Origin: Candidatus Thorarchaeota archaeon
GTDB taxonomy: Archaea; Asgardarchaeota; Thorarchaeia; Thorarchaeales; Thorarchaeaceae
Reading direction: 5' to 3'
DNA length: 64,000 nt
Assembly (NCBI GenBank): GCA_963726195.1
Contig: CAVSBO010000003.1
Location: forward strand, 352,001 to 416,000
In this document: piece after piece, positions 266 through 44,720 of the stretch
Position numbering within the stretch: position 1 is the first letter of the stretch
Layout of the letters: each line of letters opens with the position of its first letter
Position numbers and translations under genes: made by a program
Notes under the pieces: model-generated
What the model saw: the letters and a program-made list of their open reading frames with translations, nothing else
Databases searched by the model: none
What the model was told of the DNA's origin: nothing

Positions 266-3200
266 TTAGTCTAGTTCAATGCCCAAGCTATCGAGAAGGG
301 CCTTGAAATCTGCCTTTGACAAGGACTTTGCTTGGTCGAGTATGATGTCTACTTCCTCAGGAGCCATTCCTTTCTTCTGAAGCTTCGCCTTCAGCTCTTC
401 CATGTCGCTGGGCTTGGCTCCGAATAACTCCTTCTCAGGCTTGACGCTAGGCTTCCCAGCAGCCTTCTCTGCAAGGGCCTCAGCTCGTCGTGCTTGCTCC
501 TGAGCTATGACTTCATGGAGGAAGCCAGGCCTCTCGCTCGGCTTCATCCTTGCCAGGTCAGAACGGAAAGCATCGATTTCTTGAGCACCCAAGCCGGTTA
601 TCGAAGCTAGTTGATCTAGAAGGTCGTTGACCTCAGGAACTACAATCACAATTGGTTCTGGAGCGATATCCTCTGCTTGCTTCTCAATTCCAATGGGTTT
701 CAATTCCTTGTTCACGATTGCGAGGACGCTATCCGCTCGGGACCGCACCACGGCTCGCCGTGGAACCTTGCCGCGTCGGAGAGAACTAATCATGCGATTC
801 ATGACACGCACGAGTTTCGGCACGCTCCAGACTCTGACATAGAGCCCGACGAGAGCTGCACCTAGGATCAGAGCGGCTCCGCCAATGAGACTTACCCTCT
901 GATAGAACACCTGCTCCTGTGAAGTGTCGGACCTGACAGCAAACACGAGTACTTTCGTAGCATATTGCCCTCTTGAGAACTGGATGGTGATATGGAATGT
1001 GCCACCAGCGTTGATTCCAAAGTAGAGCAAGTATGTGCCGTTGTCAAGTTGCCTAGTCTGGTCAGCAAAGAAAGTGATGTTGCCGCCCTCCGTCGTGACA
1101 AGTGGTACCACGCCTGTAATTACTGCACCGTGATCCACGTCATAGTATGTTACAGGTATGACTATTGTCGCTCCGGGCACAGTTCGGATCGTAGTGTTTG
1201 CTGTCCTGAGCTCTGTGTTCACCTGTCTTACTGTGAGGTCAAGGGTAAACGATTCGATTTGGTAGATTGATGTGGCAAATGCTATCTCAATATGGTAGAG
1301 ATTCAGAGGCAGAGTTCCAGCAATGTCGAGTCTGTAGCTACCGTTTGTCATCTGGACTAGCGGAATCTCGCCAATTCCTGACCAGTATGATATTCCGTTG
1401 AGCCCTGAAACCGTCTGGTTGTTCAGCGTATTCACGACAGTAAACACAACTGAGGCGGTGTCATTCACAGGAAGAGATAGGGAGCTTGTCCCACGTATCT
1501 CAGCTGGCATCGCAAGTATTATGATGCTGACTTGAGTTGTCGCGGATGCATAGTTGCTCTTGGCAAGAGCAACACTCATTTGATATAGTCGAGGATTCAG
1601 CAAGGAGAGCCTAGTTGCGATGTAATAGCTTCCGTTGCCGAGGTCAGTAACGTTCGCAACACCACCTGCCCAACCTGCAGAGACTGTGGCGCCTACTATC
1701 TGCGCACCTGTGATGCTATCATTGTAGTAGACTGTGAACCAAATGATATCGCCATAGTACCCAACTCGTGTCAGCGGCTTGCCATTGGCATCAGTCGGCC
1801 TAGGCAGTATGTTCGCTATCACTGTTCTGGTAGCAGTGGCATAGCCGAGCTTGGTGGCGGTAACTCGCAGGTACAATGTCTCTGCTGCGAGCGAGGTCGT
1901 GTTGAATGTCACCCAATAGGACCCGTTTAGAAGGTCCCTGAATTGGCCTGTCAGGTTTCCAAGCACGTACGTTACATTGGCTCCTGTGAGCAAGCCGCCA
2001 TGGTATGTGTCGTTGTATGTAACCGAGATTGTAAGGTTGCTCCGATACACGACTGTGACTGAGGTTGCGCCGCCCGCCATTCGCAAGGCAGTGGGAACTG
2101 GTGCGACATTAATCCCAATGGAGAGGTCTAGGAATATGTGGTCAGTCTCGAAAGCTCTCAATGTGGCAGGATAGCTGCCTATGTTGAGACCGCTGAGGTT
2201 GACACTCGCCACATAGAAGCCAGGCGTTCCGTTGTAGACTAGTGCGCGAATCTTGTTGTTCCATTCTAATGTAACATTGTTGGCAATCACTGGCCTATTG
2301 GTAACCGTGTCGTTCAGGTAGACCCAGAACGAACCAGTAGTTCCGGTGACTATATTGTATGTAGACTGTGAGGGCATAATCTGACCGTTTGCCCTAAACA
2401 CGATTAGCACGAAAGACTGAGTGCGTGTCTGATAGTACTGCCTCGAAACGGACACCTGCGGCTGATGGTAACCGTAGTGTTTAGCTGATGTATCAAGGTT
2501 CAGCTGATATGTTCCGTTACCCAAGTCTGAGAACACATATAGAGTTCCGTTCCACAGGAGAGTAGCGTTCATGTGCGGAACATAAGTCGAGTACAGTGTC
2601 TCGCGAACACTCATTTGAATTAGAACGTGCTGCCCCCAATCCGCATAGTACGTACTCTGTCCGAGCAGTATGATTACTGTCGTCGACCCTGGCTGAGCTG
2701 TGACATTGATCGCGGATGTCTGATACAATGCCTTGACTGCTGTAATCGTAAACGGGTAGGCTTGAGCTACTAGTGCTGAGGTATTGAGTGTGATTCTGTA
2801 CACTCCACCTCCTATCTCTGCCCATGCGTAGCTTCGACCGTACCTACTCTGCCAATCACAACTTATGACAGCTCCTGCCAACGGCAGATTGTGGTCGAAG
2901 TCGGAGAGTGTGACGTTGAGAATGAACGGACTACCTACTGGCCGTGTCCCAGCAGGCGGCAAAGACGAAAGCAGAGAGGTCTGGACTAGGCGTATAACAG
3001 CAGGGACATTGTTTGTGGTTCTGTTCGCGTAGTGGTTCGCTGCACCCGTCTTGTAAACTGTGAGATTGAAGTAGAAGGTCCCAATCGATCCAAATTGCAC
3101 CGAAGGGACGAGTATGCGGTAAGCACCTCCTCCAAGCGAAACGAAGTAGTAGGTCAGAGATGTCTTGTTGCTGGATGTGAGAGTTGCTGAAGCACCTGCA

Positions 3201-6200
3201 ATGCCGGCTCCGGTTGTGTAGTCTGTATAATCAAAGTTCAGAGTAATATTGTCGAAGTACGGTGTATCAGGTACAAGTGGGAACAGTATCTGTGTGGGGC
3301 GCTCGACAGTTGTTGCGTACGTCGTTGTGCTCTTGGGAGCATAGTATGGGACACTAGTGCTCCTGTTGATAGACAACTGAATGGTCATGCTAGTGACAAG
3401 GTTCACTGCGTCAAGAAATGTCGAGTTAAATCTAATCTCATAATAGGCACCGTAGTTCGTCAACACGTAGTTGGCCGAAGTGAGTACATAAGCACCGCCC
3501 AGAACAATGGTGATGTTGTTCTTTGTGATGGCTATGTTCGAGCTTGTGATGAAGTCGATGTATTCAAACCTGAAGACCACAAACTCCTTGAATGGAGTGT
3601 CGCCGGGTGTCTGCGTCATAAGTATCTGAGTAGCTCTCTGTGTGACCTGTGAATTGACGTTTCTTGTCGAGAGCATATAGAACGGTGAACCTGCGCGAGA
3701 GACAGTCACACCAATAACATACTTGCCTATATGCCCAAGAGCCACGCTACTAATTCTGATTTGGTAGACCCCTTGGCCTTGATACGTTACCCAGTAGTTG
3801 CTGTTCTGCACAAGTGACGACGTGGAGTTAGAGCAAGCCAACGAGACCGAAGCGCCAGATATGCCTGTACTAGTTGTGTCATCAGTGTAAGTCACTGTGA
3901 ATGTCACATTCTCAAGGTAGGCTGTCGGATCCGGAGTGGCGTATCCAAGCTGTGTCGAACGCTTAAGGACTGACAAGCTGACGAAATCGACTGCATTGCT
4001 CACATAATTCGAACCCGTGTAGACTATGGTAGCGTTGAGCACGAACGTACCGTCTGACACAAAGGCTGAAGTGTCGAGAGTCAGCTGGTAGCCACCGTTT
4101 CCAAGGAAGAGTACCGTGTAGTGTCCCGAGAGAGTGGCATTGAGTGTCAGGGTTCCGGTCATTCCAGATGAGGATCCGGATATTAGGTCGGTGTACAGGA
4201 ACTGGATTATCACACTGTTTGCGTACTGAGGCGGAGTGAATGGCTGGTTTGTGAGCTGACTGCTTCTCAGAATCACTGTGACAACGAAGGCTTTGCTGCC
4301 CACCGATGCATAGAAGGGCGCGCCTGTCCAAGTCATGTTGAGATGCAGAGTGTAGGAGCCGATGCCTCCGAGACTGTGCGTATCAATGGTGATGTTGAAC
4401 AATCGTTGAGCAGAAATGTAGGTCAATGAATAGGAGACCGTGCCTTCATTCAGCCGCACCGTGAGATTGCTAGGAGAATTGGGAATGCGACTTGCAGTCA
4501 ACGTATCATAGAAGCTAAATGTGAAAACTGCGTATTGCCCGTATGGAGTAGATTGGATGGGGTTCGGATCGATATAGGTTGATCTCTGAATGGCCGTGAG
4601 GGTCACGGTCATCGTGTTGTTTTCATAGAGAGGCGACTGACCACTCTTCCACAGGAAGTCAAGCTGGAATACGAACGATCCGCACTTCCCAAAGAGGGAG
4701 CTATTCAATGCAAAGCTGTAGACGCCGCCACCCAGTCCCACCACCTTGAATTTGGCTTGTGTGACACTGTGACCACCGGTGAGGGCTGTTATCTTGAGAT
4801 GTACGTAGCCAGATGTGTTGGAAATACCTGTTCCATTCAAGACATCCCAGTAGACTGCTGTGAATGTCAGATTCTGAAGATAATAGGTGGCGCTCGGTGC
4901 TTGCTGAAGGTACAGATCGGTGGTCGTGCCCGAAACTCTCACTGCCGTACTAATGGATTTGCCATAGTAGGTAACGACAGGTCCCGTCCAGCTAACTGCA
5001 ATCGTGAGATTCTTCCAGCCAATTGAGCCCCACTGGCGCGCCATCGCTGTTATGTTGTAGTGACCCACGCCTAGGGTGTCAGCCACCATTGTGAACTTGA
5101 AGTTGGTGACGCCCGGCGCCGACACGACAATGTGGACATAGCCGCTTCCGTTAGAGATGCCGACCCCGAGGTCAGTATCCTGATAATAGACTAGGATATC
5201 TATCAGCTGGCCGTACGCGGTCTGGCTCAATGGTTGGTCCAGCGTAAATAGTGTGTTGTGAGAACGCACCTGAACGCCCACAGTAAAGGTGTGATTCTGA
5301 TAGAGGTAACGTTCAACCTTGAACAAAACGGTGTAATAGTAGTTGGGCGCTGTAAGAGGGTCACTCAACATAGTGAACACGGTGATCCTGTACACACCAG
5401 GGGAAACTTCTGCAACTGTGTAGTTTGTGTCTCCGTGCGAATGGAATGTTGTCCAATTGCAGCTAATTGAACTGCTCGAACCAGTGACAGGGTTGTTATT
5501 CTCGTCGGTCCAAGTTAGGTTAAAGTTAGCTGACTGCCCAACAGGTATTGAGAGCTGATTTGCGGAGTAAGCAATGTTGTTGTACACGCTTCTTACGTCA
5601 ACAAACATTACCATCATCTGAGTCAGGACGAATTGTGCTTTCGCTGTAATGTTCAGAGCGTTCCTGCCAATTCCATACCCGGTGGTGTTTAGCGTCATCT
5701 TATAGAAACCCAAGCCCAACGAAGTGACCTGATACGGCTTGGTCCAGTTGCACTTGATAACGGCGCCCGTGATGCCAGTGCCGTTCACGTTCTTGAAGCT
5801 CACAGTGAACGATTGATCATAGCCAATCGGGCCCGAAATGCCTGGATATTGAGGAGACTGTAACGTTGCCGCGTAGTTCACGTTCATGTAGAGAGTCGCC
5901 GTGGCATTATCATAGCGTGAACAAGTCCACTTCAGCTGCATTGTGTAACGCCCAGCATGCGTCAGACCTGAAGTGTCGATGACCTTCGTGTATTGTCCGT
6001 TTCCGCTGTCGTCGAAAGTAACAGTGCCAAGCGTCCAGGTCAACGTGAGCGTTCCACCCGCAACAACTACCTTGCTGTCGGTGTCGTTTGCCTTTATCAC
6101 GACTAGTACAAGAGCGCCGTAAGTTGCATTAGTAACCCAAGTAGTCTGAGCATCTGATGGGTACAGAATTGAGATTTTGGAAGAATGAGTTACTGTGAAA

Positions 6201-8038
6201 GGTCTCTTGAAGAATCCAGTGGACTGCCATTTGCCGCTGCTGCCCACGTCGTTCGTACTGGCTTGAATCATCCAAGCACCTGCAGTCGCGTTGGTACCTG
6301 CGAAAGTAAGGGACTTGCTGGTTGCATAGCCTGTGGCATTAGCAGTAGCATTGCCACTGTACCACTTTGATCCAGATGGGCCGTAGATAGTGATATTGAC
6401 TACCGAATTTGCGTAAGAGGCTCCAACATAGGCGCGGACTTTTGTGACGTTTCCGGCTCTGAGATTGACGGTCGCCTTCCAAGTAGAGTCCTTAGGATCC
6501 AACATCTGGATGTTCGTAATCATGTTCGCAGACTGGCTGAGGATTCGCCAGTAGCCATATCTGCCTGCGTCGGTAGCATCCTTGTATGCAGACACGTTCA
6601 CGTAACCTTGACCGATTTGTCCACCGTTCCATCCCGATGGATATGTGAGATTTGTCGAAGGAGCGAGTGGTGCGCCGACGAAGTAGACACGTCTGTTTGA
6701 TGGAATAGTCTCGTTGAAGAAGTACTTGTTGGAGTATCCTGTGGGGATATTCGCATAGAAGAAAGTTGTGTAGTAAGCCTGAGAGCCGTTCTGAATAGCG
6801 AAGCTCTGACCGTAATCAGTGGGACTAATATCAAACACGGTAAGCGTGTTAAGTCGTCGCGCGTAGAAGTTGATTGCGACATCGAACTGCACGATTATGT
6901 TAAGGTTTGGAGCAGGAGTCGCAGGCACTGGAGCCCAAGTGAAGTTCATCCGTACGGGATTGGTTCTCCACGGGGTTCCGGGAGATTGTGTGATTGTGCC
7001 CGCTCCATAACCTGTGCTGTTGACCACAGCAACACCGTTCATCTTGAGATTAACATTGGTAGGAGCAGCTTTTGTCACCAGATACAACTGAATGTTGTCG
7101 AGCTTGGCATGAGGCCTAATATTCGGGGTGTAGCCTACGGCCACCTTGCTCAACAATCCTGCTTCAAGCCACACATTTTGTACGGAAGGCAGATTGAACG
7201 TGTATGCAGGTATGAAAACCATACCGCTGTTATACCAAGTCCGCTCCGCACCGATTGAATCGAATACAATCTCCCAGATAGCTGTGCTCTGGCTTCTCAC
7301 ATACAGCGAGAACGATCCAGTCATGCCATAGTGAGTGTTGTCTCTGGTTTCTGCCCAGTAGTCCAGAGTCAAGCCGGCCCACACAACTGTTCCACGCGTA
7401 ATTGGCACGGTCTGGTTCACCCAAGCCTTGTCGCCTGAATCGTAGTTGTAGACTGGGCCGCCTCCGGTCGAGTTGATCTCCAACTCAACCGCTCCATTGC
7501 CCGTTCCGTGGCCTGTCGCGTTGTATGTACAATACGGATTGCTGCTGCCGCCCGCCCCTGTTGTACCGAGAGTCCAGTTACCACTACCGCACTTTGTGCT
7601 GAAATCGTAGTTCTTGAACCACGTGCGATTCTCAGTCAGACTTGAAACACTGACAACAGCCTTGTATGCTTCCCAGCCGCTTCCAGTGGGTACACTCACA
7701 CTTGAATTAGCCGTGGTACCGTTCGAGAAGTGCTTCACAGTCACGCTTGAATAGCTGTTAGTGCTATTCCCGAACTCGCCCGTATTGCTGCCAGTGAACG
7801 GCGCAGAGTATCCGTCCCATTCAGTCCATCCTTGATCAGTCAAGACAAACCTGTGCAACTCCTCGTCAGGGCCTATTGGAGGAATGCCGTTGACATTCGG
7901 ACCAACCTGTGTCGCTGATCCTGTCTGGCCACCGCCCAACGGCGCAGCAAGCATTCCAAGTGCGCCCGGCGAGAACATCTGAATCATTATGGCTATCACA
8001 AACAGTGCAAACGGCACAAGCTTCTTCATACGGCTCAT
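266..8038 (-). CDS. Giant type-I membrane surface glycoprotein 1 (2590 aa): signal peptide, CBM-like head, about 16 Ig-like repeats, one TM helix, ~190-aa cytoplasmic helical domain
   Basis: Intact ORF with a hydrophobic N-terminus. The motif D(L/M)GNG(T/S)Yx(L/I)x(L/I)(N/D)T recurs about every 100 aa and N-x-S/T sequons are abundant. TM segment VSLIGGAALILGAALVGLY is followed by a charged helical tail. The ATG overlaps the upstream TGA (ATGA, 8035-8038). Confidence 0.9.
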   Translation of the reverse strand: MSRMKKLVPFALFVIAIMIQMFSPGALGMLAAPLGGGQTGSATQVGPNVNGIPPIGPDEELHRFVLTDQGWTEWDGYSAPFTGSNTGEFGNSTNSYSSVTVKHFSNGTTANSSVSVPTGSGWEAYKAVVSVSSLTENRTWFKNYDFSTKCGSGNWTLGTTGAGGSSNPYCTYNATGHGTGNGAVELEINSTGGGPVYNYDSGDKAWVNQTVPITRGTVVWAGLTLDYWAETRDNTHYGMTGSFSLYVRSQSTAIWEIVFDSIGAERTWYNSGMVFIPAYTFNLPSVQNVWLEAGLLSKVAVGYTPNIRPHAKLDNIQLYLVTKAAPTNVNLKMNGVAVVNSTGYGAGTITQSPGTPWRTNPVRMNFTWAPVPATPAPNLNIIVQFDVAINFYARRLNTLTVFDISPTDYGQSFAIQNGSQAYYTTFFYANIPTGYSNKYFFNETIPSNRRVYFVGAPLAPSTNLTYPSGWNGGQIGQGYVNVSAYKDATDAGRYGYWRILSQSANMITNIQMLDPKDSTWKATVNLRAGNVTKVRAYVGASYANSVVNITIYGPSGSKWYSGNATANATGYATSKSLTFAGTNATAGAWMIQASTNDVGSSGKWQSTGFFKRPFTVTHSSKISILYPSDAQTTWVTNATYGALVLVVIKANDTDSKVVVAGGTLTLTWTLGTVTFDDSGNGQYTKVIDTSGLTHAGRYTMQLKWTCSRYDNATATLYMNVNYAATLQSPQYPGISGPIGYDQSFTVSFKNVNGTGITGAVIKCNWTKPYQVTSLGLGFYKMTLNTTGYGIGRNALNITAKAQFVLTQMMVMFVDVRSVYNNIAYSANQLSIPVGQSANFNLTWTDENNNPVTGSSSSISCNWTTFHSHGDTNYTVAEVSPGVYRITVFTMLSDPLTAPNYYYTVLFKVERYLYQNHTFTVGVQVRSHNTLFTLDQPLSQTAYGQLIDILVYYQDTDLGVGISNGSGYVHIVVSAPGVTNFKFTMVADTLGVGHYNITAMARQWGSIGWKNLTIAVSWTGPVVTYYGKSISTAVRVSGTTTDLYLQQAPSATYYLQNLTFTAVYWDVLNGTGISNTSGYVHLKITALTGGHSVTQAKFKVVGLGGGVYSFALNSSLFGKCGSFVFQLDFLWKSGQSPLYENNTMTVTLTAIQRSTYIDPNPIQSTPYGQYAVFTFSFYDTLTASRIPNSPSNLTVRLNEGTVSYSLTYISAQRLFNITIDTHSLGGIGSYTLHLNMTWTGAPFYASVGSKAFVVTVILRSSQLTNQPFTPPQYANSVIIQFLYTDLISGSSSGMTGTLTLNATLSGHYTVLFLGNGGYQLTLDTSAFVSDGTFVLNATIVYTGSNYVSNAVDFVSLSVLKRSTQLGYATPDPTAYLENVTFTVTYTDDTTSTGISGASVSLACSNSTSSLVQNSNYWVTYQGQGVYQIRISSVALGHIGKYVIGVTVSRAGSPFYMLSTRNVNSQVTQRATQILMTQTPGDTPFKEFVVFRFEYIDFITSSNIAITKNNITIVLGGAYVLTSANYVLTNYGAYYEIRFNSTFLDAVNLVTSMTIQLSINRSTSVPYYAPKSTTTYATTVERPTQILFPLVPDTPYFDNITLNFDYTDYTTGAGIAGASATLTSSNKTSLTYYFVSLGGGAYRILVPSVQFGSIGTFYFNLTVYKTGAANHYANRTTNNVPAVIRLVQTSLLSSLPPAGTRPVGSPFILNVTLSDFDHNLPLAGAVISCDWQSRYGRSYAWAEIGGGVYRITLNTSALVAQAYPFTITAVKALYQTSAINVTAQPGSTTVIILLGQSTYYADWGQHVLIQMSVRETLYSTYVPHMNATLLWNGTLYVFSDLGNGTYQLNLDTSAKHYGYHQPQVSVSRQYYQTRTQSFVLIVFRANGQIMPSQSTYNIVTGTTGSFWVYLNDTVTNRPVIANNVTLEWNNKIRALVYNGTPGFYVASVNLSGLNIGSYPATLRAFETDHIFLDLSIGINVAPVPTALRMAGGATSVTVVYRSNLTISVTYNDTYHGGLLTGANVTYVLGNLTGQFRDLLNGSYWVTFNTTSLAAETLYLRVTATKLGYATATRTVIANILPRPTDANGKPLTRVGYYGDIIWFTVYYNDSITGAQIVGATVSAGWAGGVANVTDLGNGSYYIATRLSLLNPRLYQMSVALAKSNYASATTQVSIIILAMPAEIRGTSSLSLPVNDTASVVFTVVNTLNNQTVSGLNGISYWSGIGEIPLVQMTNGSYRLDIAGTLPLNLYHIEIAFATSIYQIESFTLDLTVRQVNTELRTANTTIRTVPGATIVIPVTYYDVDHGAVITGVVPLVTTEGGNITFFADQTRQLDNGTYLLYFGINAGGTFHITIQFSRGQYATKVLVFAVRSDTSQEQVFYQRVSLIGGAALILGAALVGLYVRVWSVPKLVRVMNRMISSLRRGKVPRRAVVRSRADSVLAIVNKELKPIGIEKQAEDIAPEPIVIVVPEVNDLLDQLASITGLGAQEIDAFRSDLARMKPSERPGFLHEVIAQEQARRAEALAEKAAGKPSVKPEKELFGAKPSDMEELKAKLQKKGMAPEEVDIILDQAKSLSKADFKALLDSLGIELD

Positions 8039-11000
8039 AACTTCTCGCCTCCAATCTGATCCAGCAGGGCATCTATCTCTGCTTTTGTGAGATTCCTGGC
8101 TTGTTCAATCATGATATCGGCTTCGCTCTCTTCTATTCCCATCTCGATGAGCCGCTCACGGAGTTGCTTCAGCTCGCTCTCTGTGAGCTTCCTCTCAAGA
8201 TGTTCAACTGCCTTGCCGGGCATCGCTGCCTTCTCAGCTTCGACGAGTTCGCGTGCTCTGCGGGCACGTTCCTGCCTCAGCACTTCACTTACAAATCCGG
8301 CCCTTTCGCTAGGTCTCATCTTTTCTAGGTCCTGTTTCAGCACTGCGACGTCACTTTCGCTGAGGCCAACCACTTGGGCCAGCTCAGTCAGCAGCTTCTC
8401 GACATCAAGGATTGAGATATCTACTGTGGACAGACTGACATCCTCAAGACTCTTTGAAACTCCAATCTCAGCGAGTTCATCGTTCATTAGGTCCAGCAAC
8501 ATCTCTCTTCTGTCCCTGACTGCTGCCGGGCGTGGAATGTCGCCCTTGCTCAGCTTCCCGACCATCGACCTAATTCGTCTCAGCATGGGGGGTACTGACA
8601 GTACCTTGACGTACAAGGCCCCAAACGCGGCGATGAGTATCAACGCCAATGAGCCGTAAGTGAATGCAGTAACCAACATTGCCTGCTGGGGCGAGATGAG
8701 AGAGTAGATCACGGTCGAGTACACAGCTGTGGCATAGTCTGCCTTGTCGAAATGCACCTCCAGACTCAGATCGCCAGCCTGAGGCGCATTGAAAGCGAGC
8801 ACATATGTGCCGTTGCCAAAGTCTAGACTCTGGCTAGACACATAGTAGAGATCCGTCCCGGGTGTGCTGTTGTAAGCACTTGCTATCGGCTTATTGTGGT
8901 CGACATCCCAATAGGTCAGCCGAACCACGAAGGTGTCTCCTGCAAAGATGGTCGTTGGCGGCGGCACAACCACGAGCTGAGTCAGCTATCTTTCTAATTG
9001 TAAGATAAAGAACAAACTCTGCGTGACTGTAGTTGCCTCTGGAGAACTGAATGTGAACCACATACGGCGTGTTTCTCACTTCGAGTCGAGCGATTCCCGA
9101 CTCAATCGCTCCAAATTCATAGGACCCATTGCCAAGATTAGTCAGGGATGCGACACCAAACTCCCAAACTGCTGTGGCAGTAGCATCAGTCAGTAGGTGA
9201 TTGTTGAGCGTGTCGTTGAATCGGAAAAGCTGCCTGTAGTCGTCGCCTACCGGTACCGAGACTGTCTGCGTGCCCATGACTGCAGTCGGAATGGGCCTCA
9301 CGATGAGCTTCACTACGGTGAAGGCATAGTCGTATCGTGACCTATGCATGGAGATGTAGACATCGTGGCTGACAGCTCCTGCAGTCAGCAGCCTTGTATC
9401 TATGACCAAGGAGTAGTTGCCGTTCTTCAGATCAGTAACGGTTCCTCCAAACGATTCGAGGGTGAACTGACCTGTTCCATTCACAATCGGCTGGTTGTTG
9501 TGAGAATCCCAGTAGGCAAACAAGAACGTTACATTCCTGCCGTAGTAGCCTTCCTGCAGTGGACTAGACAAGACCAAGATAGTTGTGGGAACTTGGGTAA
9601 TTGTAACAGTGAGCTGGATTGAAGATGGAGAGTAACCAGTCTTAACGCCGGATACTGTCAGCACCCAATCACGAATGTCGCTTGTGCCCGTGGGAACGCT
9701 AGCTGAGTAGTACCCTCCACCAATGTCAGAAAGATTACCCACATGAGCTCCCAAGCTGTCAGCTTAGCATGCCACCAGTCACTGATTCGTTCAAGGCTGT
9801 ATTGTTCAGGTACACTGTGACGTTCAAATGGTCTCCTGACACGATCGTGTAGACCGTGTGGCCCAGGTAAGCCTTGAGTTCCGTCGGGATTTCTGTGATT
9901 TCAATTGTCACCTGGAAACTCACTGTCGCGTAGTTGTCGGATGATGCAACGACAAGGATTTGGTGAGTACCTACTGGAGCTCCGTTGACAACAGACTCGG
10001 CAACGTACATTGAGCCATTCCATGTCAGTATTCCCGAACCTCCGACCCAGCCGTACGTTAGATGACCAAACCTGATCGGAGTGCTATTGGACTGGATGAG
10101 GTACCGAGCAGTAATAGTAAGACCGTGCCCGTTGACAGTGATTGTGGGGTTAATCCCACCAGACGTCGTTGCTCCGACTTTGGCGATTCTAATCTGAAAG
10201 CCCTGAGAGCGGGTTTCATAGTTCGTAAGAATGAATGAAACCGTCATCGTATACTCGCCGGAAACGTACTGCCCGGTGAGCACAGTGCATCGGTATCTCC
10301 CGCCACCAATACCAGACATAACGTAAGTGTGAGAAGAGAGAGTTAGATTGACGCTTGCTCCGGATATGGGAGTCCCTGTCCTAAAGTCGGTAATGTTCAC
10401 TTCAATGATGACGGTATCACCCCACGTTGGAGCAACAGGGGTCGTTTGCAGAACGATGCTCACAGGCGTGGGAGATAGAACAATGTCAGCGATGATAGTC
10501 TGGTTCACGTAAAGGTACTTCGAAGCGCTGATAGCAAAACTGTACAGCCCGGCATTCAGACTTGCAGTCGTTATGCTAAGCCTGTACACTCCATTGCCCA
10601 TGAAAGTGATAGTCGCACTAGTTGAGTATCGAAGCGTCCAATTGGTACTGACAGAGGCACCGTTTATGCCGGCACCCGTCGAGATCGGCCTGAATGTGAT
10701 ATTCCCCACAACGGTGTCGCCCAAGTAATGGAGAGAACCGATTGGGAGATCAAATGAGAGAACTGTGGAAACCGGGTTGACCGCTACGTTGAATGCTATG
10801 CCAGTTACGTTCTGATAGTACGGCAGGCCAGTCCAAGTCAGGTTGGCCAGGAAGTAGTACCTTCCTAGCGATGGCAGGAGAGTTGTGTTGACACTCACTA
10901 GGTAGGTGCCATCGCCCATGCTGATTCCCCAACCCTGCACGGAAGTCTTGTTCAAACACTTGAATTTCAGGACGGCGCCAGCTATCCCTGTGCCCTTGAG

Positions 11001-14000
11001 GTAGTCTGAATACTTTATCACCGCGGTTATGTTGTAATAGTAGTACGCAGGAGGAGCAGAGATGACGCTTGCTTGGGTGTATCGACCAGTGATGGTAACC
11101 TGAGTCGTGGCTGTCGAATTCGAGTAGTATGGAACGACGTTGCCCCAGAATAAGGTCAATCCTATTGGATGGTTAGTGACCAATGATGATCCTATGAGGG
11201 TGGAGTTGAATGAAATCGTGTACACTCCATTGCTTCCTGTCAGAGAGTAGCTTGCAGAACCAATGGGAGTGCCTGAACCATGAGTAAGGATTAGAACTGA
11301 CTTTGTCAATGTGATTGGTGTGCCTGACAAGCCATCGGTCGCAGTGATTTCAAAGGTCACGTACTCTAGGTATGCAGTATTGAGTGGAGACCTCGATACA
11401 GTGAGGCTCGCGGGTCTTCTTGAAACCTCAATACTCACCGATCGAACACGTTGCATATAAAACGGATTTCCTGTATAGTTGGCAGTAACGACTATCGAGT
11501 ACGGTCCGAAGTTGCCCAGAGCAACTGTCGAGATCCGGATTCTGTAGTAGCCATCGGTAGCATTGTAGTATACCCAGTAGTTACCTCCTTTGGCAAGCGG
11601 GTATGATGAATTCCCGCAGCTCGCGTAGATGTTTGCGCCCGGTATCGCCACACCTGTTGTGTCGTCACTATATCTCACCATGATCGTGGCATTCGTCAAA
11701 TAGGGAGCGAGGTCAGGTGGCAGGCTGGTCAACTGAGTACGTCTTTGGATTAACGTTAGGTAGAAGAAGTCAGTAGCATCCAAGCAGTATCTTGCGCCGT
11801 TGTAATGTATGCTCGCATTGACTCTGAAGACACCGAGAGATAGAAAGGTGGTCGTATTGAGAGTCAACGTGTACGTGCCGTCATTATTGTCCAGTATCGT
11901 GTAGTGACCAGATAGCGATGAATCAAGGGTCAGCGTACTACCCTTCATGCCGGCAGTCGTGCCATCATCATCATCCCTGTATGTGAACACGAGAATCAGA
12001 TTGTCTTTGTACTGAATAGGGGCGTACGAGCCGTGTGATAGGTCGGTGTTTCTGTATCTCACTGTTATGGGCACAGGAATGTGAGTCTGGTTCTGGTAGA
12101 ACGGCTTTCCAGCCCATATTACGTTGAGATGGAATGTGTGCGTGCCAGGAGTCCAAGAATTAGTATTCAGTCGAATCTTGAAGACACCAGTTGCATTTCC
12201 AAGATAGTATACCGTGTATGAAATGGGCTCGTCCAGCGTAATAGTGAGCATACTTGTCTTTAGTATCGGATTGCCCGTGATAGAATCTCTATAGACAAGA
12301 GTGAGATTCACGAGTGTGTCATATGGAGTTACGGGTATTGGAGTCCAGTCCGCAGCAGTGAGACGAGAAGTGGTGTATACAGTTACGAGCAGAGTCTTGT
12401 TGTCATATTGTGGCAACTGTCCCTTGGTCCAGTTCAGGAAAATCCTCAACTGACAGCCGATGAGCCCGCTAAGATAGGCTTGTACTGAATACGATACGGT
12501 ACTCACCAGGCCTGCTGATAGGACTAACCTCCGTGATTGTCATTACACTCTGTGTCAGAGTCTGACCTGGAGTCAATACAGAGATGTAGATCTTTACGTT
12601 CCACTTGTATGGGCCGGTCCCGTTTGTGATACCTGTCGCGTTGGATACATCAAAATAGATTACTGTGAAGTTGGCATTTTCGCCATACGGAGTAATGACA
12701 GGGCTTTGGCCAATGTATAGGTCAGTAGGAGACGATGTAATGCTTGCACTAGTGCTGATGACCTTGTCATAGTACTTCGTAGTCGGGCCTGTCCAGTTTG
12801 CGTATATGACAAGAGGCTCTGACCCAATTGTGCCCCACTGGTCAGCACGGATTATGATCACGTAATACCCAGGCTGGGTCCCATTGACTACTTGATACTT
12901 GAGTCCCGGCAAGGTTGAGCTTGTCACGCGTATCTTGACGTAGTAGCCGACCGTGGAGCCATTCTGAATACCCACCATGAGGTCAGAATCGAAATATGAC
13001 ACGTTGATGTAGACACGGCCAGTGTACGGGGTCCGGCTAATCGCGTTCAGAAGACTGAATGATGTCAGGTGAGTTCTCAGAACAACTGTTACAACGAAGG
13101 TGTGGTTCTGAGCTCCGTACTTTAAGACGTTGAAAACGACAGCGTACGAACGCAAAGCATCTGAATCCTTCGAGAAAAGCGTGACTTGGTAGACTCCCGG
13201 AGTTCCGGTTGTTGTGACTGTGTAGTTCTGGTCGCCTTTGACGTGTATGCTAGACCAGTTGCAGCTGATTGCGCTTGCAGCACCTGTAATAGGAGTCCCA
13301 TGGTCCGTGTCTGTGTACGTGATTGTTAGAGATGCGCTATAGCCCACGGGGACGGAAAGCAGACTTGCAGACGGGATAGCTGAGGTATGGAGATCCCTTA
13401 CTTGCAGGGAGAGAACAATCGACTTTGTTGCAAAGTAGTCCCTCCTTGCGGTGATGTTTATGTGGTAAGTTGCGAGTGGAGCCGCACTAGTGCGCAAAGT
13501 CAAATCATAGTAGCCGGGTTTTCCTGCCTCTGGGGTGACACTATAGGTATCCTTGGTCCAGTTGCACGAGACCAAAGCATTCTGAATTGCGTTGCTCTTC
13601 TGGTCTGTGTAAGACACATGGAAAGTAGCGTTATACCCTTTCGGCACATCGACACCCGGAGCGTCAGAGGAGAACAGATTACTCGTGTATATCACATTAA
13701 TTGTGAATGTCTTCGAAATCGAATCATAGTAGGTCTTGGACCATAGTAGATTCACAATGAATTGGCCATTGGATGACAAGAGGCTTGTATTGAGTGTCAC
13801 GCTGTATTCTCCGGTCCCTAAGTCAGCAACTTGTCCGGAGCCAGCCGCCCAAGAATAGGTCATGGCTCCCCCGGGGAGCATGACTCCTCTGTCCGAGTCA
13901 TTCACTCTGAATTGCAGAAGCACCAGATCGCCGTACGTTGCATTGTATGTCCACGAAGTGACAGAAGATGAGGGGTACTTAACGGCCATCTGGGTCGAGT

Positions 14001-16692
14001 GATTAACGGTGAACCCTCTGCGGTAGAATCCTACGTTTCTCACAGCTCCTCCGCCAGATACAGAGTCAAACACGTAGGCCTGGACTTCCCAAGACCCGAC
14101 CGTAGCGTTCGAGGATGCGAACGTAACGTACCCGGTGGTTGCGTAACCAGAGCTATTGATCGTCGCTTGAAGTGTCTTCCAGAGGTTGCCACTAGAATCA
14201 TACACGCTGAAGTTGACTTTATTGCCAGAATAGGAAGTGTTAGAGAATGACGCAAGGAATCTTGTTTGTTCGTTTGCTCTGAAGGCCTTCGTCGTGACCC
14301 ACTGAGAGGTAAGCGTGTTCCATACCTTAAGGTTCGAAATCATGTTTGGCGAATAGCCCTTCATGTCCCAGAATCCATTCTGGCTTGTCGTCGTGACCTT
14401 GTACACTGAGACATTGACCTTCCCATCGCCAACTTTCCCGTAGGACCATTGAGAGCCGTACGTGAGGTTCGTTGTACGGAAGTTGGGTTGAGATACAAAG
14501 TTGACGTCCCTGTCTTTTGGTATCGAGACGTTGAAGAAGTAGTATGACGAGTATCCTCCGGGCACGGCGGGATAATGGTTTGTCTCCCATTGAACTAACG
14601 AAGCATTTTGCACCACGAAGTTGTCGCCGGTCGTGAACTTTGCGGTATCGTTCACCGTAAGCACATTATACCTTCGAGCCCATACTGTTACGTAAGTGTT
14701 AATCGCGATTGAGATTGTCATGTCCGGGTTAGGAGGATTTGGAATAGGCGTCCAAGAGAAATTCCCATAGGCACTGCCAGACTGCCAAGGGATGGCAGGC
14801 GAGTATGTAGCGGTTCCTCGACCGAAGATAGGTTGTGAGCCATTCATGACATTGCTGACCACTACGCCATCCATCTTGAGATTGATGTTCTGAGGAGTGG
14901 CTTTGGCTTTCATGTATATCAGTAGATTATCTACCCTGCCCTCAGGTCCGATTTCAGGTCTGTACCACTCGCTTTGCGTATCTCGCAGACCTGCCATGAT
15001 TGTTACGTTCGGAAGAGTGATAGAAGACGTGCTTACGGGCAATAGACCCGTGGAGTACCATGTATTTGGAGCGGCTATCGCATCGAATGCCTTGCTCCAC
15101 AAGTAGGTGCCACCCGCATCTGGGTCACCTATTGAGACAAAAAGCTGGAAGAAGCCAGTCATGTATCCACCCCATCCTCGGCAAGATGCATAGTAGTCCA
15201 GCGAGATTCCGAGCCATGTGATTTGGCCTCTGGGAATACTCAGCTTTTGACTGACGAAGGCCTTGGTGCCAGGGTTGTACCAGTAACCGTACAGCCCGCC
15301 TCCTGCATCATGATAGAAACCATTGAGGACGAAATCGGGTGATGGGTTCCCTGCGCCGTGCCCGGTGGCCGACCACGTACTAGCAGGACGGTCTCTTGCG
15401 CTACTCTCGGTCGTATAGATGTAACCCGTGGAATTCACTGCAATTCCATAATTGAAGTGGAAGTTGCCGTTTCCTGAACCATCAGAACCCCATGAGGAGG
15501 TGCCGCCGGTCACATTGTTGTAGGTATAGACTCGATGGTTGCCTGCGTCATCAATGTACACCATGCCAGTCGATGAATAGGCGGCAATCCCTTCGGGTGT
15601 CAGCATTCCTGAACCAATTGTCGTAGCACTGGCCCCAATCTCGGAGAAGCGGCGCACTTGGCTTCCTGAGGTTTGGACCTCGCTCACGAAGACTTGCCTG
15701 CTGACTTGTAGGATTGCTATTCCATGAGGCAGCCCCACACTCGCCCATTGGCCGACGTACGAACCTGTATCGCTAAAGTACTGTACCCTTGAGTTTCCAG
15801 AGTCAACAACATAGGCACGGTAGTTGTAGTTCATGATAGCTATGCCAACCGGACCATGAAACAGCCCATTTCCCTCACCGGTTGAGCCCCATGATCTCTG
15901 ATAGACGCCTCGGGCATTGAAGACCTGAATCCTGTCATTTCCATAGTCTGCCACATACACATAGCCAGTGTTATTTACAGCGATACCCATGGGCCTGTCA
16001 AATTGCCCGGTGCCAGTTCCGTAAGTCCCCCACTTGAACTGGAACACTCCATTGCGATTGAATACTTCGATACGGTTGTTGTAAGTATCCGCGACATAAA
16101 CGAACCCTGTAGAGTTAATTGCGATGCCCCATGGATCGGTGAAATTGCCGTTTTGCGCGCCCCTTGAGCCCCACTGTCTCTGATATACGCCCGCCGAGGT
16201 AAAGACCTGTACCCTGTCATTCCCTGAGAAGTAACCTTCAAGCTGGCCGGTCCCGTAACTCCAGTTTGCGTTCGTGGCATAGCCAGAGTTGCCGACCCAA
16301 GTCCTGTTCTCAGTGACGTCAGTCAAGTTCCCAAGCACTTTGTAACCTTGCCACGCGTTTCCGAGGGGCACGGAGAGGTTTGCGGTCGTTGTCTTCTGAG
16401 TTGACGGGTTATAGATCATGCTACTTCCAGTGAATGTGTCTGTCCGTGTGCCGTATTCTGACACCACGAGCGGCGAACCCACACCAGTCTTCTGGCTTGG
16501 TGCAGCCGACAAGACATACTCGTAGAGTATCTCATCAGGACCAACTTCGATGGTCGTGCCATTTCCAAGGTCGACTATTCTTGAACCTGATTGAGAAGAA
16601 GACACATTCGGCAATAGGGGGTTGATCATAAAACTCCCCAATGTCATCGATGCCATCATGAAAAGCACGACAATGAATCGAGTTGGTCTCAT
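8035..16692 (-). CDS. Giant type-I membrane surface glycoprotein 2 (~2880 aa reconstructed) with NHL beta-propeller; split into 4 ORFs by 3 probable sequencing indels
   Basis: ORFs 12469-16725, 9759-12506, 8891-9754 and 8035-8973 are colinear with protein 1. Removing one base at each of ~12475, ~9760 and ~8985 restores STSLLSGLIG, LSYSLGAHVG and RKIATQLVVV. Likely ATG at 16692 (MRPTRF) after an AGGAG. NHL repeats of the type PxGIAVNxxGxVYVADxxNxRIQVF are present. Confidence 0.85.

Positions 16693-41799: not shown

Positions 41800-44720
<2,921 letters not shown>

Follow-up and report, generated by a model that had tools for sequence, protein, structure and literature searches.

The stretch analyzed here, hereafter the window, comprises 64,000 nucleotides of a Candidatus Thorarchaeota genome (assembly GCA_963726195.1, contig CAVSBO010000003.1, positions 352,001 to 416,000; G000:C3:352001-416000 in the genome numbering used below), which totals 2.9 Mb in 19 contigs. 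At its low-coordinate end, it encodes two adjacent giant surface proteins, giant A and giant B, whose C-terminal tails belong to one family. The reading we favor, with moderate confidence, is that this tail is a platform for protein interactions, folded and built of three modules, on giant N-glycosylated single-pass surface proteins, and that its juxtamembrane module docks a longin/winged-helix (longin/WH) protein. So understood, the tail would be more than a passive anchor: its first module, the 50 residues just inside the membrane, would represent an Asgard-wide motif docking a cytoplasmic protein made of a longin domain and two winged helices with an NPRL2/3-like fold, and as the predicted docking falls on the C-terminal winged-helix and helical part of this partner, the longin domain would be left free. 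Since the gene overlapping that of the docked partner encodes a longin-type extension joined to an Arf-family GTPase, the giants may anchor at the membrane a module that regulates a small GTPase. Module 2 and module 3, the latter consisting of one to five three-helix units tethered by an acidic linker, probably recruit further cytoplasmic ligands or pair the tails of tandem giants; their roles, together with the direction and purpose of any signal, we infer. The proposed mechanism rests on gene neighborhoods in other lineages and on one well-controlled structure model.

The topology of giant A can be read from its sequence. Only two hydrophobic segments were found, the signal peptide and the transmembrane (TM) helix at about residues 2382-2404, and the ectodomain carries 77 N-x-S/T sequons (3.2 per 100 amino acids, aa) against none in the tail. 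The share of charged residues goes from 10% ahead of the TM helix to 33% past it, with 8 Lys/Arg within the first 24 residues. By the positive-inside rule, therefore, the last 186 residues of giant A are placed in the cytoplasm, and the tail is cytoplasmic by topology; in giant B, about 187 residues lie beyond the helix. No PGF motif was found ahead of the TM helix of giant A. The preliminary description of this DNA had contrasted these tails with the other surface proteins of the window, and the contrast is real: those proteins end 5-15 residues past the TM helix, a few basic residues beyond it (e.g., in KKTRA or KSRAK directly before the stop codon). It had also placed a conserved cytoplasmic region of about 190 aa, present in both giants, at 266-845 and 8035-8615. 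These coordinates are correct: each stretch begins within the TM helix and ends with the stop codon. Both tails carry the motifs quoted there behind a single TM helix, and their alignment of 205 aa (E 2e-43) shows 41% identical and 63% positive positions. The shared region thus stands as described, whereas its designation as a single domain does not, as it resolves into three modules with different taxonomic ranges.

An AlphaFold2 model of the tail, built on a 78-row alignment and numbered with residue 1 at giant A residue 2380, has a mean predicted local distance difference test score (pLDDT) of 90.9 and a predicted template modeling score (pTM) of 0.48. The tail is accordingly predicted to be folded rather than disordered, with nine helices. 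The TM helix (2-25) is followed by a basic amphipathic helix (29-42), a G-K-x-P-R/K-P loop, and a further helix (55-70), which together form the juxtamembrane module. An extended stretch then leads into a three-helix bundle (91-102, 106-117, and 124-147), and after a short low-confidence linker the tail closes with a three-helix unit (164-176, 181-191, and 196-205). Across 78 tails, P28, R32, P47, R55, L98, F127, and Q134 are invariant, and G44 and N64 nearly so. The terminal unit is present in 1-5 copies, and some relatives carry four or five in tandem. In comparisons of giant A with two orthologs, P0004 and P0014, the three-helix bundle is 87% and 70% identical, the whole tail 77% and 53%, and the ectodomain 71% and 43%; at the sequence level, the tail, and above all its bundle, is more constrained than the ectodomain. 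The coordinates of these elements are collected in Table 1.

Table 1. Positions of giant A, giant B, and the elements of their tails, in coordinates of the window
Feature	Coordinates	Strand	Description
Giant A	266..8038	-	Single intact open reading frame, 2590 aa; type-I surface glycoprotein with signal peptide, repeat-rich ectodomain, one TM helix, and cytoplasmic tail
Giant A TM helix	827..895	-	Residues about 2382-2404; Kyte-Doolittle peak; helix 2-25 in the AlphaFold2 model of the tail
Giant A juxtamembrane docking motif (predicted)	680..826	-	Tail residues 26-74; basic amphipathic helix, G-K-x-P-R/K-P loop, S-R-x-D/E helix
Giant A connector and three-helix bundle	452..679	-	Tail residues 75-150; VPE..DLL..L..ITGL...EI..F..DL..MKPSER.GF..EVI.QE.ARRA; most conserved part
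Giant A flexible linker	422..451	-	Lowest pLDDT; in paralogs about 60-90 aa long and acidic/Pro-rich
Giant A terminal three-helix unit	269..421	-	L..L...G....E.D.I..QA..LSKAD..ALLDSLG
Giant B	8035..16692	-	Paralog of giant A, about 2884 aa; four frames as it stands in the window
Giant B TM helix	8599..8667	-	Alignment to giant A
Giant B juxtamembrane motif	8452..8598	-	Hidden Markov model E 1.8e-19
Giant B connector and three-helix bundle	8224..8451	-	Hidden Markov model E 1.9e-24
Giant B terminal three-helix unit	8038..8193	-	Hidden Markov model E 2.8e-19

It had further been suggested that the two helical parts of the tail, the bundle and the terminal unit, arose by internal duplication. A weak likeness between the first helices of the bundle and the terminal unit does exist (hhalign probability 56% over 21 columns), while cross-searches with their hidden Markov models (HMMs) returned E values of at least 20, and a duplication is not established. 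As a separate observation, residues 89-95 at the start of the bundle (P-E-V-N-D-L-L, window about 610-630; consensus P-E-x-x-E-L-L) match the pattern [DE]xxxL[LI] and are nearly invariant. This pattern is that of the eukaryotic acidic dileucine sorting signal, which is read by sigma-adaptins, proteins with a longin-like fold. In the tail model, the match sits in a confident helix outside the interface predicted below, and it may reflect core packing alone.

The three modules differ in their phyletic spread. An exhaustive HMMER search with the tail against 1.84 billion representatives recovered 103 proteins at E ≤1e-3, 93 of them at ≤1e-10, with the match always C-terminal and in hosts of up to 5543 aa; nearly all public records of close relatives are named Candidatus Thorarchaeota. 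When the 78-tail alignment was searched against 400 genomes of the phylum, the tail was found in 80 of the 85 genomes of its own family (Thorarchaeota metagenome-assembled genomes, MAGs), in 1-10 copies each and in open frames of 2,000-6,560 aa, in the single genome searched from the sister family, and in 17 of 19 genomes of one further family (E 1e-18 to 1e-27). The tail is therefore conserved far beyond its own genome. Several other families gave weak matches only, and in some the tail was not found, e.g., in any of the 31 genomes of family f8. The further family with full matches carries divergent forms of all three modules, whereas in four other Asgard families only profile positions 3-80, i.e., the TM helix and the juxtamembrane motif, were matched, and another 30-130 residues bring those proteins to their end. 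Thorarchaeota and that one further family are where the bundle and the terminal unit occur. Within the genome analyzed here, a third copy of the tail, with a long Pro/Glu-rich linker, lies at C3:693129-693926 (hereafter the long-linker giant); the juxtamembrane HMM scores E 1e-18 to 6e-24 on all three tails, and a scan of the genome with the module HMMs returned no carriers beyond these three. Separately, in one relative of only 341 aa (P0098), a short, unrelated N-terminal membrane region precedes the bundle and the latter half of the juxtamembrane motif, the giant ectodomain being absent; given this architecture, the module may also sit on small proteins.

The link to a cytoplasmic partner emerged from gene neighborhoods in these other lineages. 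In four of five other Asgard genomes checked, most genes carrying the juxtamembrane motif stand directly beside a homolog of one longin/WH gene of about 370 aa, placed downstream (0-12 bp away or overlapping by 4 bp), immediately upstream, or divergently beside a tandem array. The homolog in our own genome lies at G000:C3:712784-713890, and it is overlapped by the next gene, whose product is an Arf-family GTPase (Pfam Arf, 2.5e-20) with a longin-type extension at its N-terminus. These two belong to a set of three packed genes at G000:C3:712212-714744 (L098 941..3464), consisting of a Cys-rich B-box-like zinc-finger protein, the longin/WH protein, and the extension-Arf GTPase. The longin/WH partner is present in 38 of 40 Thorarchaeota genomes; 13 of these have it 8-25 kb away from the long-linker giant, the two genes being divergent. 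Tail and partner are largely missing together in family f8, where tails were found in none of the 31 genomes and the partner in one, a 72%-complete MAG that carries it on a short contig. Asgard genome layout seldom reveals which proteins work together (PMC10933270). In the window, a search of the giants' surroundings for a tail partner recovered unrelated metabolic genes only; their immediate neighbors are the end of a tRNA-synthetase gene and a P-type ATPase.

The partner itself is confidently modeled (pLDDT 90.6, pTM 0.87). Its residues 1-116 form a longin domain, for which the best VIA-align match is a GATOR1 chain (8fw5_B, Z 9.9 over 118 aa, root-mean-square deviation (rmsd) 2.9), ahead of a chain of the SEA complex (Z 9.6) and a roadblock-longin protein from Lokiarchaeota (Z 9.5). 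Behind this domain come two winged helices, at residues 131-198 and 247-330, with VIA Z of 7.6-8.8.

We then modeled the partner (33-row alignment) together with tail residues 24-150 (78-row alignment). The interface score ipSAE was 0.71 (0.71, 0.73, and 0.65 in individual runs), against 0.00 for the best of three controls; the mark applied to this score is reached by 58 of 80 solved complexes and by 2 of 110 mismatched pairs, counts that are only a rough guide for custom alignments. Contact agreement between runs was at least 58%, and partner pLDDT in them at least 67. On the tail side, the confident interface involves residues 27-74 only, including P28, G44, P47, R55, and N64; on the partner side, it involves residues 144, 199-211, 226-247, and 327-366, including the invariant D199, P206, F331, P333, and L361. 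The model supports binding of the longin/WH protein to the juxtamembrane motif, short of showing it. The earlier proposal of an intracellular docking module thereby gains partial support, at the level of modeling and of the adjacent longin/WH genes in other Asgard families, for the 50 juxtamembrane residues, with a partner other than those it had named.

Several observations weigh against this assignment. In Thorarchaeota, the longin/WH gene is not adjacent to the giants and is downstream of them in none of the 80 related loci, and in G100, the one genome checked from the other full-tail family, the homolog likewise lies elsewhere. The linkage over 8-25 kb occurs within one family and may be inherited gene order; more generally, genomes of one family are kin, and their counts are not independent. 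The predicted binding rests on a structure model with custom alignments, the conserved partner residues are only modestly enriched at the interface (11 of 54 conserved columns, with about 12% expected), and the basic amphipathic helix could just as well rest on the membrane. With Foldseek, the partner matches many GATOR1 chains, but weakly (best E 3.8e-3 to 1e-2, others up to 3e-2; template modeling score about 0.2), because single domains alone superpose. Finally, the bundle and the terminal unit, the lineage-specific and best conserved parts of the tail, fall outside the predicted interface.

Another gene beside a tail-bearing giant was considered as a partner and rejected. At L003 380..1156 (G000:C3, about 692320-693096) lies a gene for a RadA/Rad51-like protein (Pfam Rad51, 2e-15), followed by GcvH-like and Orc1/Cdc6-like genes. 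It is convergent with the long-linker giant and lies 11-23 bp past the stop of that giant in 46 of 80 Thorarchaeota loci. As it lacks an orthologue in the two other tail-bearing families, namely the sister family and the other full-tail family (best match 31% identity), and is confined to its own family, the RadA-like gene is not a consistent partner.

None of the searches for known families or folds gave the tail an identity. Pfam searches with both tails, giant A, and the tails of relatives returned nothing above threshold for the window tails, and NCBIfam gave no tail match. Foldseek of the tail model against the PDB found nothing below E 1, and VIA-align of the tail against 48,161 chains peaked at Z 7.1 (8roq_N, 62 aa, rmsd 2.5, on bundle residues 85-153), which is within the noise expected of helical proteins. 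In the ESM Atlas, shape comparison of the tail model gave template modeling scores of at most 0.30, and comparison by language-model features gave no usable match. A whole-tail profile run against PDB sequences had its best hit in a designed TIM barrel (E 0.0014), which we judged meaningless, and the terminal-unit profile recovered background only (best E 0.008, to L7/L12), with RecX not found. The terminal unit does show a faint likeness to the RecX repeats (PF21982, RecX_HTH1), with which it shares its three helices, its length of about 45 aa, and the pattern L-S-x-x-E-L-x-x-x-L-x-x-x-G. Only a five-unit relative, at 29.4 bits, exceeds the RecX_HTH1 gathering score of 26, whereas tail A of the window reaches 13.4 bits, below it, with 20 of 40 profile positions aligned, and for tail B, RecX_HTH1 is not among the matches listed. 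The literature yielded no published description of the tail, nor of surface-protein tails tied to longin proteins. The tail is an undescribed domain family with clear boundaries and invariant residues.

Giant B deserves separate comment, as it does not read through in the assembly. Its frames are broken by single extra bases at 8983, 9760, and 12477, with tail B closing the frame 8035..8973. Exactly those three bases are missing from contigs that match at about 99% identity and come from one study, in which two peat-metagenome runs carry the stretch; one such contig has all of it in one piece. In two source-like runs, X3 and X5, no contig spans the three sites. None of the public runs listed as carrying this DNA is an RNA data set. 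Without the extra bases, giant B is one frame of 2918 codons, or 2884 aa counted from MRPTRF. Its orthologs are intact open reading frames (ORFs) in five relatives, measuring 2601-2915 aa in the four that are uncut, and each stands directly upstream of an A-type gene (about 2590 aa); giant A orthologs in relatives span about 2585-2608 aa. The breaks thus appear to be either assembly errors or very recent changes, and as giant B reads as one protein once the extra bases are removed and has intact orthologs, the phrase "both giant proteins" in the preliminary description was a fair one. Two further genes are likewise split, the third giant (L003) and a second longin/WH copy (G000:C7:41460-42510), so further one-base errors may exist in the assembly. 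Elsewhere in the window, the 2.7 kb or so at 42000-44700 are rich in purines and in A (GC content 0.33, AT skew 0.5) and may be low-complexity DNA or an assembly artefact, with poly(A) runs of up to 135 nt at 44076-44210, and the ORF called at 44060 opens with an artefactual poly-Lys run.

The stop codon of giant B overlaps the start of giant A (ATGA; B low end 8035, A high end 8038), and this arrangement underlies the first alternative we weighed, namely that the tail is chiefly an oligomerization module, with translationally coupled B and A pairing through their bundles in the style of heterodimeric receptors and adaptor binding being secondary. We regard it as rather unlikely as the main function, though it is compatible with the docking reading. 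The B-then-A tandem, in which the two colinear giants measure about 2600-2900 aa, is conserved in different genera and in the sister family (G313, G347, G317, G370 twice, and the sister-family genome G311), in 22 of 80 related loci another giant gene begins 70-135 bp downstream, and the bundle is the most conserved part of the tail and holds its long helix at residues 124-147. Set against this, the long-linker giant of our genome has no visible adjoining tandem partner. Across relatives, other size-matched tandems also recur: a giant of about 6000 aa followed by one of about 3980 aa, and a long-linker giant followed by one of about 3170 aa.

A second alternative assigns the juxtamembrane segment to biogenesis or anchoring, as a positive-inside stop-transfer signal with an inner-leaflet amphipathic helix that braces a long stalk, the remainder being a structural foot without specific ligand. 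The cluster of eight Lys/Arg past the TM helix, the clear amphipathic pattern, and the very large ectodomain of all members would fit such a role. We nevertheless consider it quite improbable, as the plain anchors of the same window manage with 3-15 residues, invariant Pro, Arg, and Gly would be unexpected for a mere topogenic signal, the 130-aa folded extension is constrained more than the ectodomain, and the longin/WH gene recurs next door. Docking of cytoskeletal or ESCRT components (actin, profilin, arrestin-like proteins, or ESCRT), which the preliminary description had also raised and for which we found nothing in support, we hold to be very improbable: it draws on general analogy with eukaryotic adhesion receptors alone, along with the report that Asgard protrusions hold surface proteins and actin filaments together (PMC9834061), while such genes are not linked to the giants in the window or in the 80 related loci, and the tail has no sequence or fold likeness to known actin-, talin-, or ESCRT-binding modules.

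Seen beside known systems, the giants share with archaeal S-layer-type glycoproteins, whether anchored by a C-terminal TM helix or through PGF-CTERM and archaeosortase, a signal peptide, an N-glycosylated repeat ectodomain, and one C-terminal TM helix. Those plain or PGF-CTERM anchors, however, stop a few basic residues past the helix, whereas giant A continues for 186 folded, conserved residues and lacks the PGF motif. In layout, integrin beta and the cadherins are similar, with a single TM helix joining their giant modular ectodomain to a conserved tail for adaptors, and the paired paralogous giants recall heterodimeric receptors; both are analogies only, as there is no sequence or fold relationship, and the tail of giant A has no NPxY or catenin-binding motif. 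The adaptor differs as well, being the longin/WH protein predicted for the giants in place of talin, kindlin, or catenin in the eukaryotic receptors.

For the predicted partner, though not for the tail, the closest parallels are NPRL2 and NPRL3 of GATOR1 and the Asgard NPRL2-like longins, with which it has in common an N-terminal longin domain followed by winged helices. Its gene adjoins one for a longin-extended Arf-family GTPase. It is KICSTOR and Rag-Ragulator, rather than the tail of a receptor, that recruit GATOR1 itself. The individual parts have precedents in Asgard archaea: NPRL2-like longins are catalogued as eukaryotic signature proteins (PMC9834061); Asgard longins have been discussed as possible GTPase-activating proteins (GAPs), with an arginine finger and a GP motif described for GAP longins (PMC12290439); and NPRL2-like longins, Arf-related GTPases, and abundant surface proteins have all been described (PMC9834061, PMC12290439, PMC10933270).

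A bolder version of the docking reading, which we entertain only tentatively and consider doubtful, is that the giants are true transmembrane receptors: paired paralogous adhesins that would couple surface events to a GATOR1-like longin/Arf-type GTPase switch, with the bundle and terminal units recruiting more effectors. Many eukaryote-like longins and small GTPases of Asgard archaea lack assigned partners, and the tail and the longin/WH protein offer a concrete pair that can be taken to the bench. That tandem giants share one tail family bears on how these cells sense or grip their partners, and should the receptor version hold, the arrangement would represent an archaeal forerunner of the wiring from receptors to small GTPases in eukaryotes.

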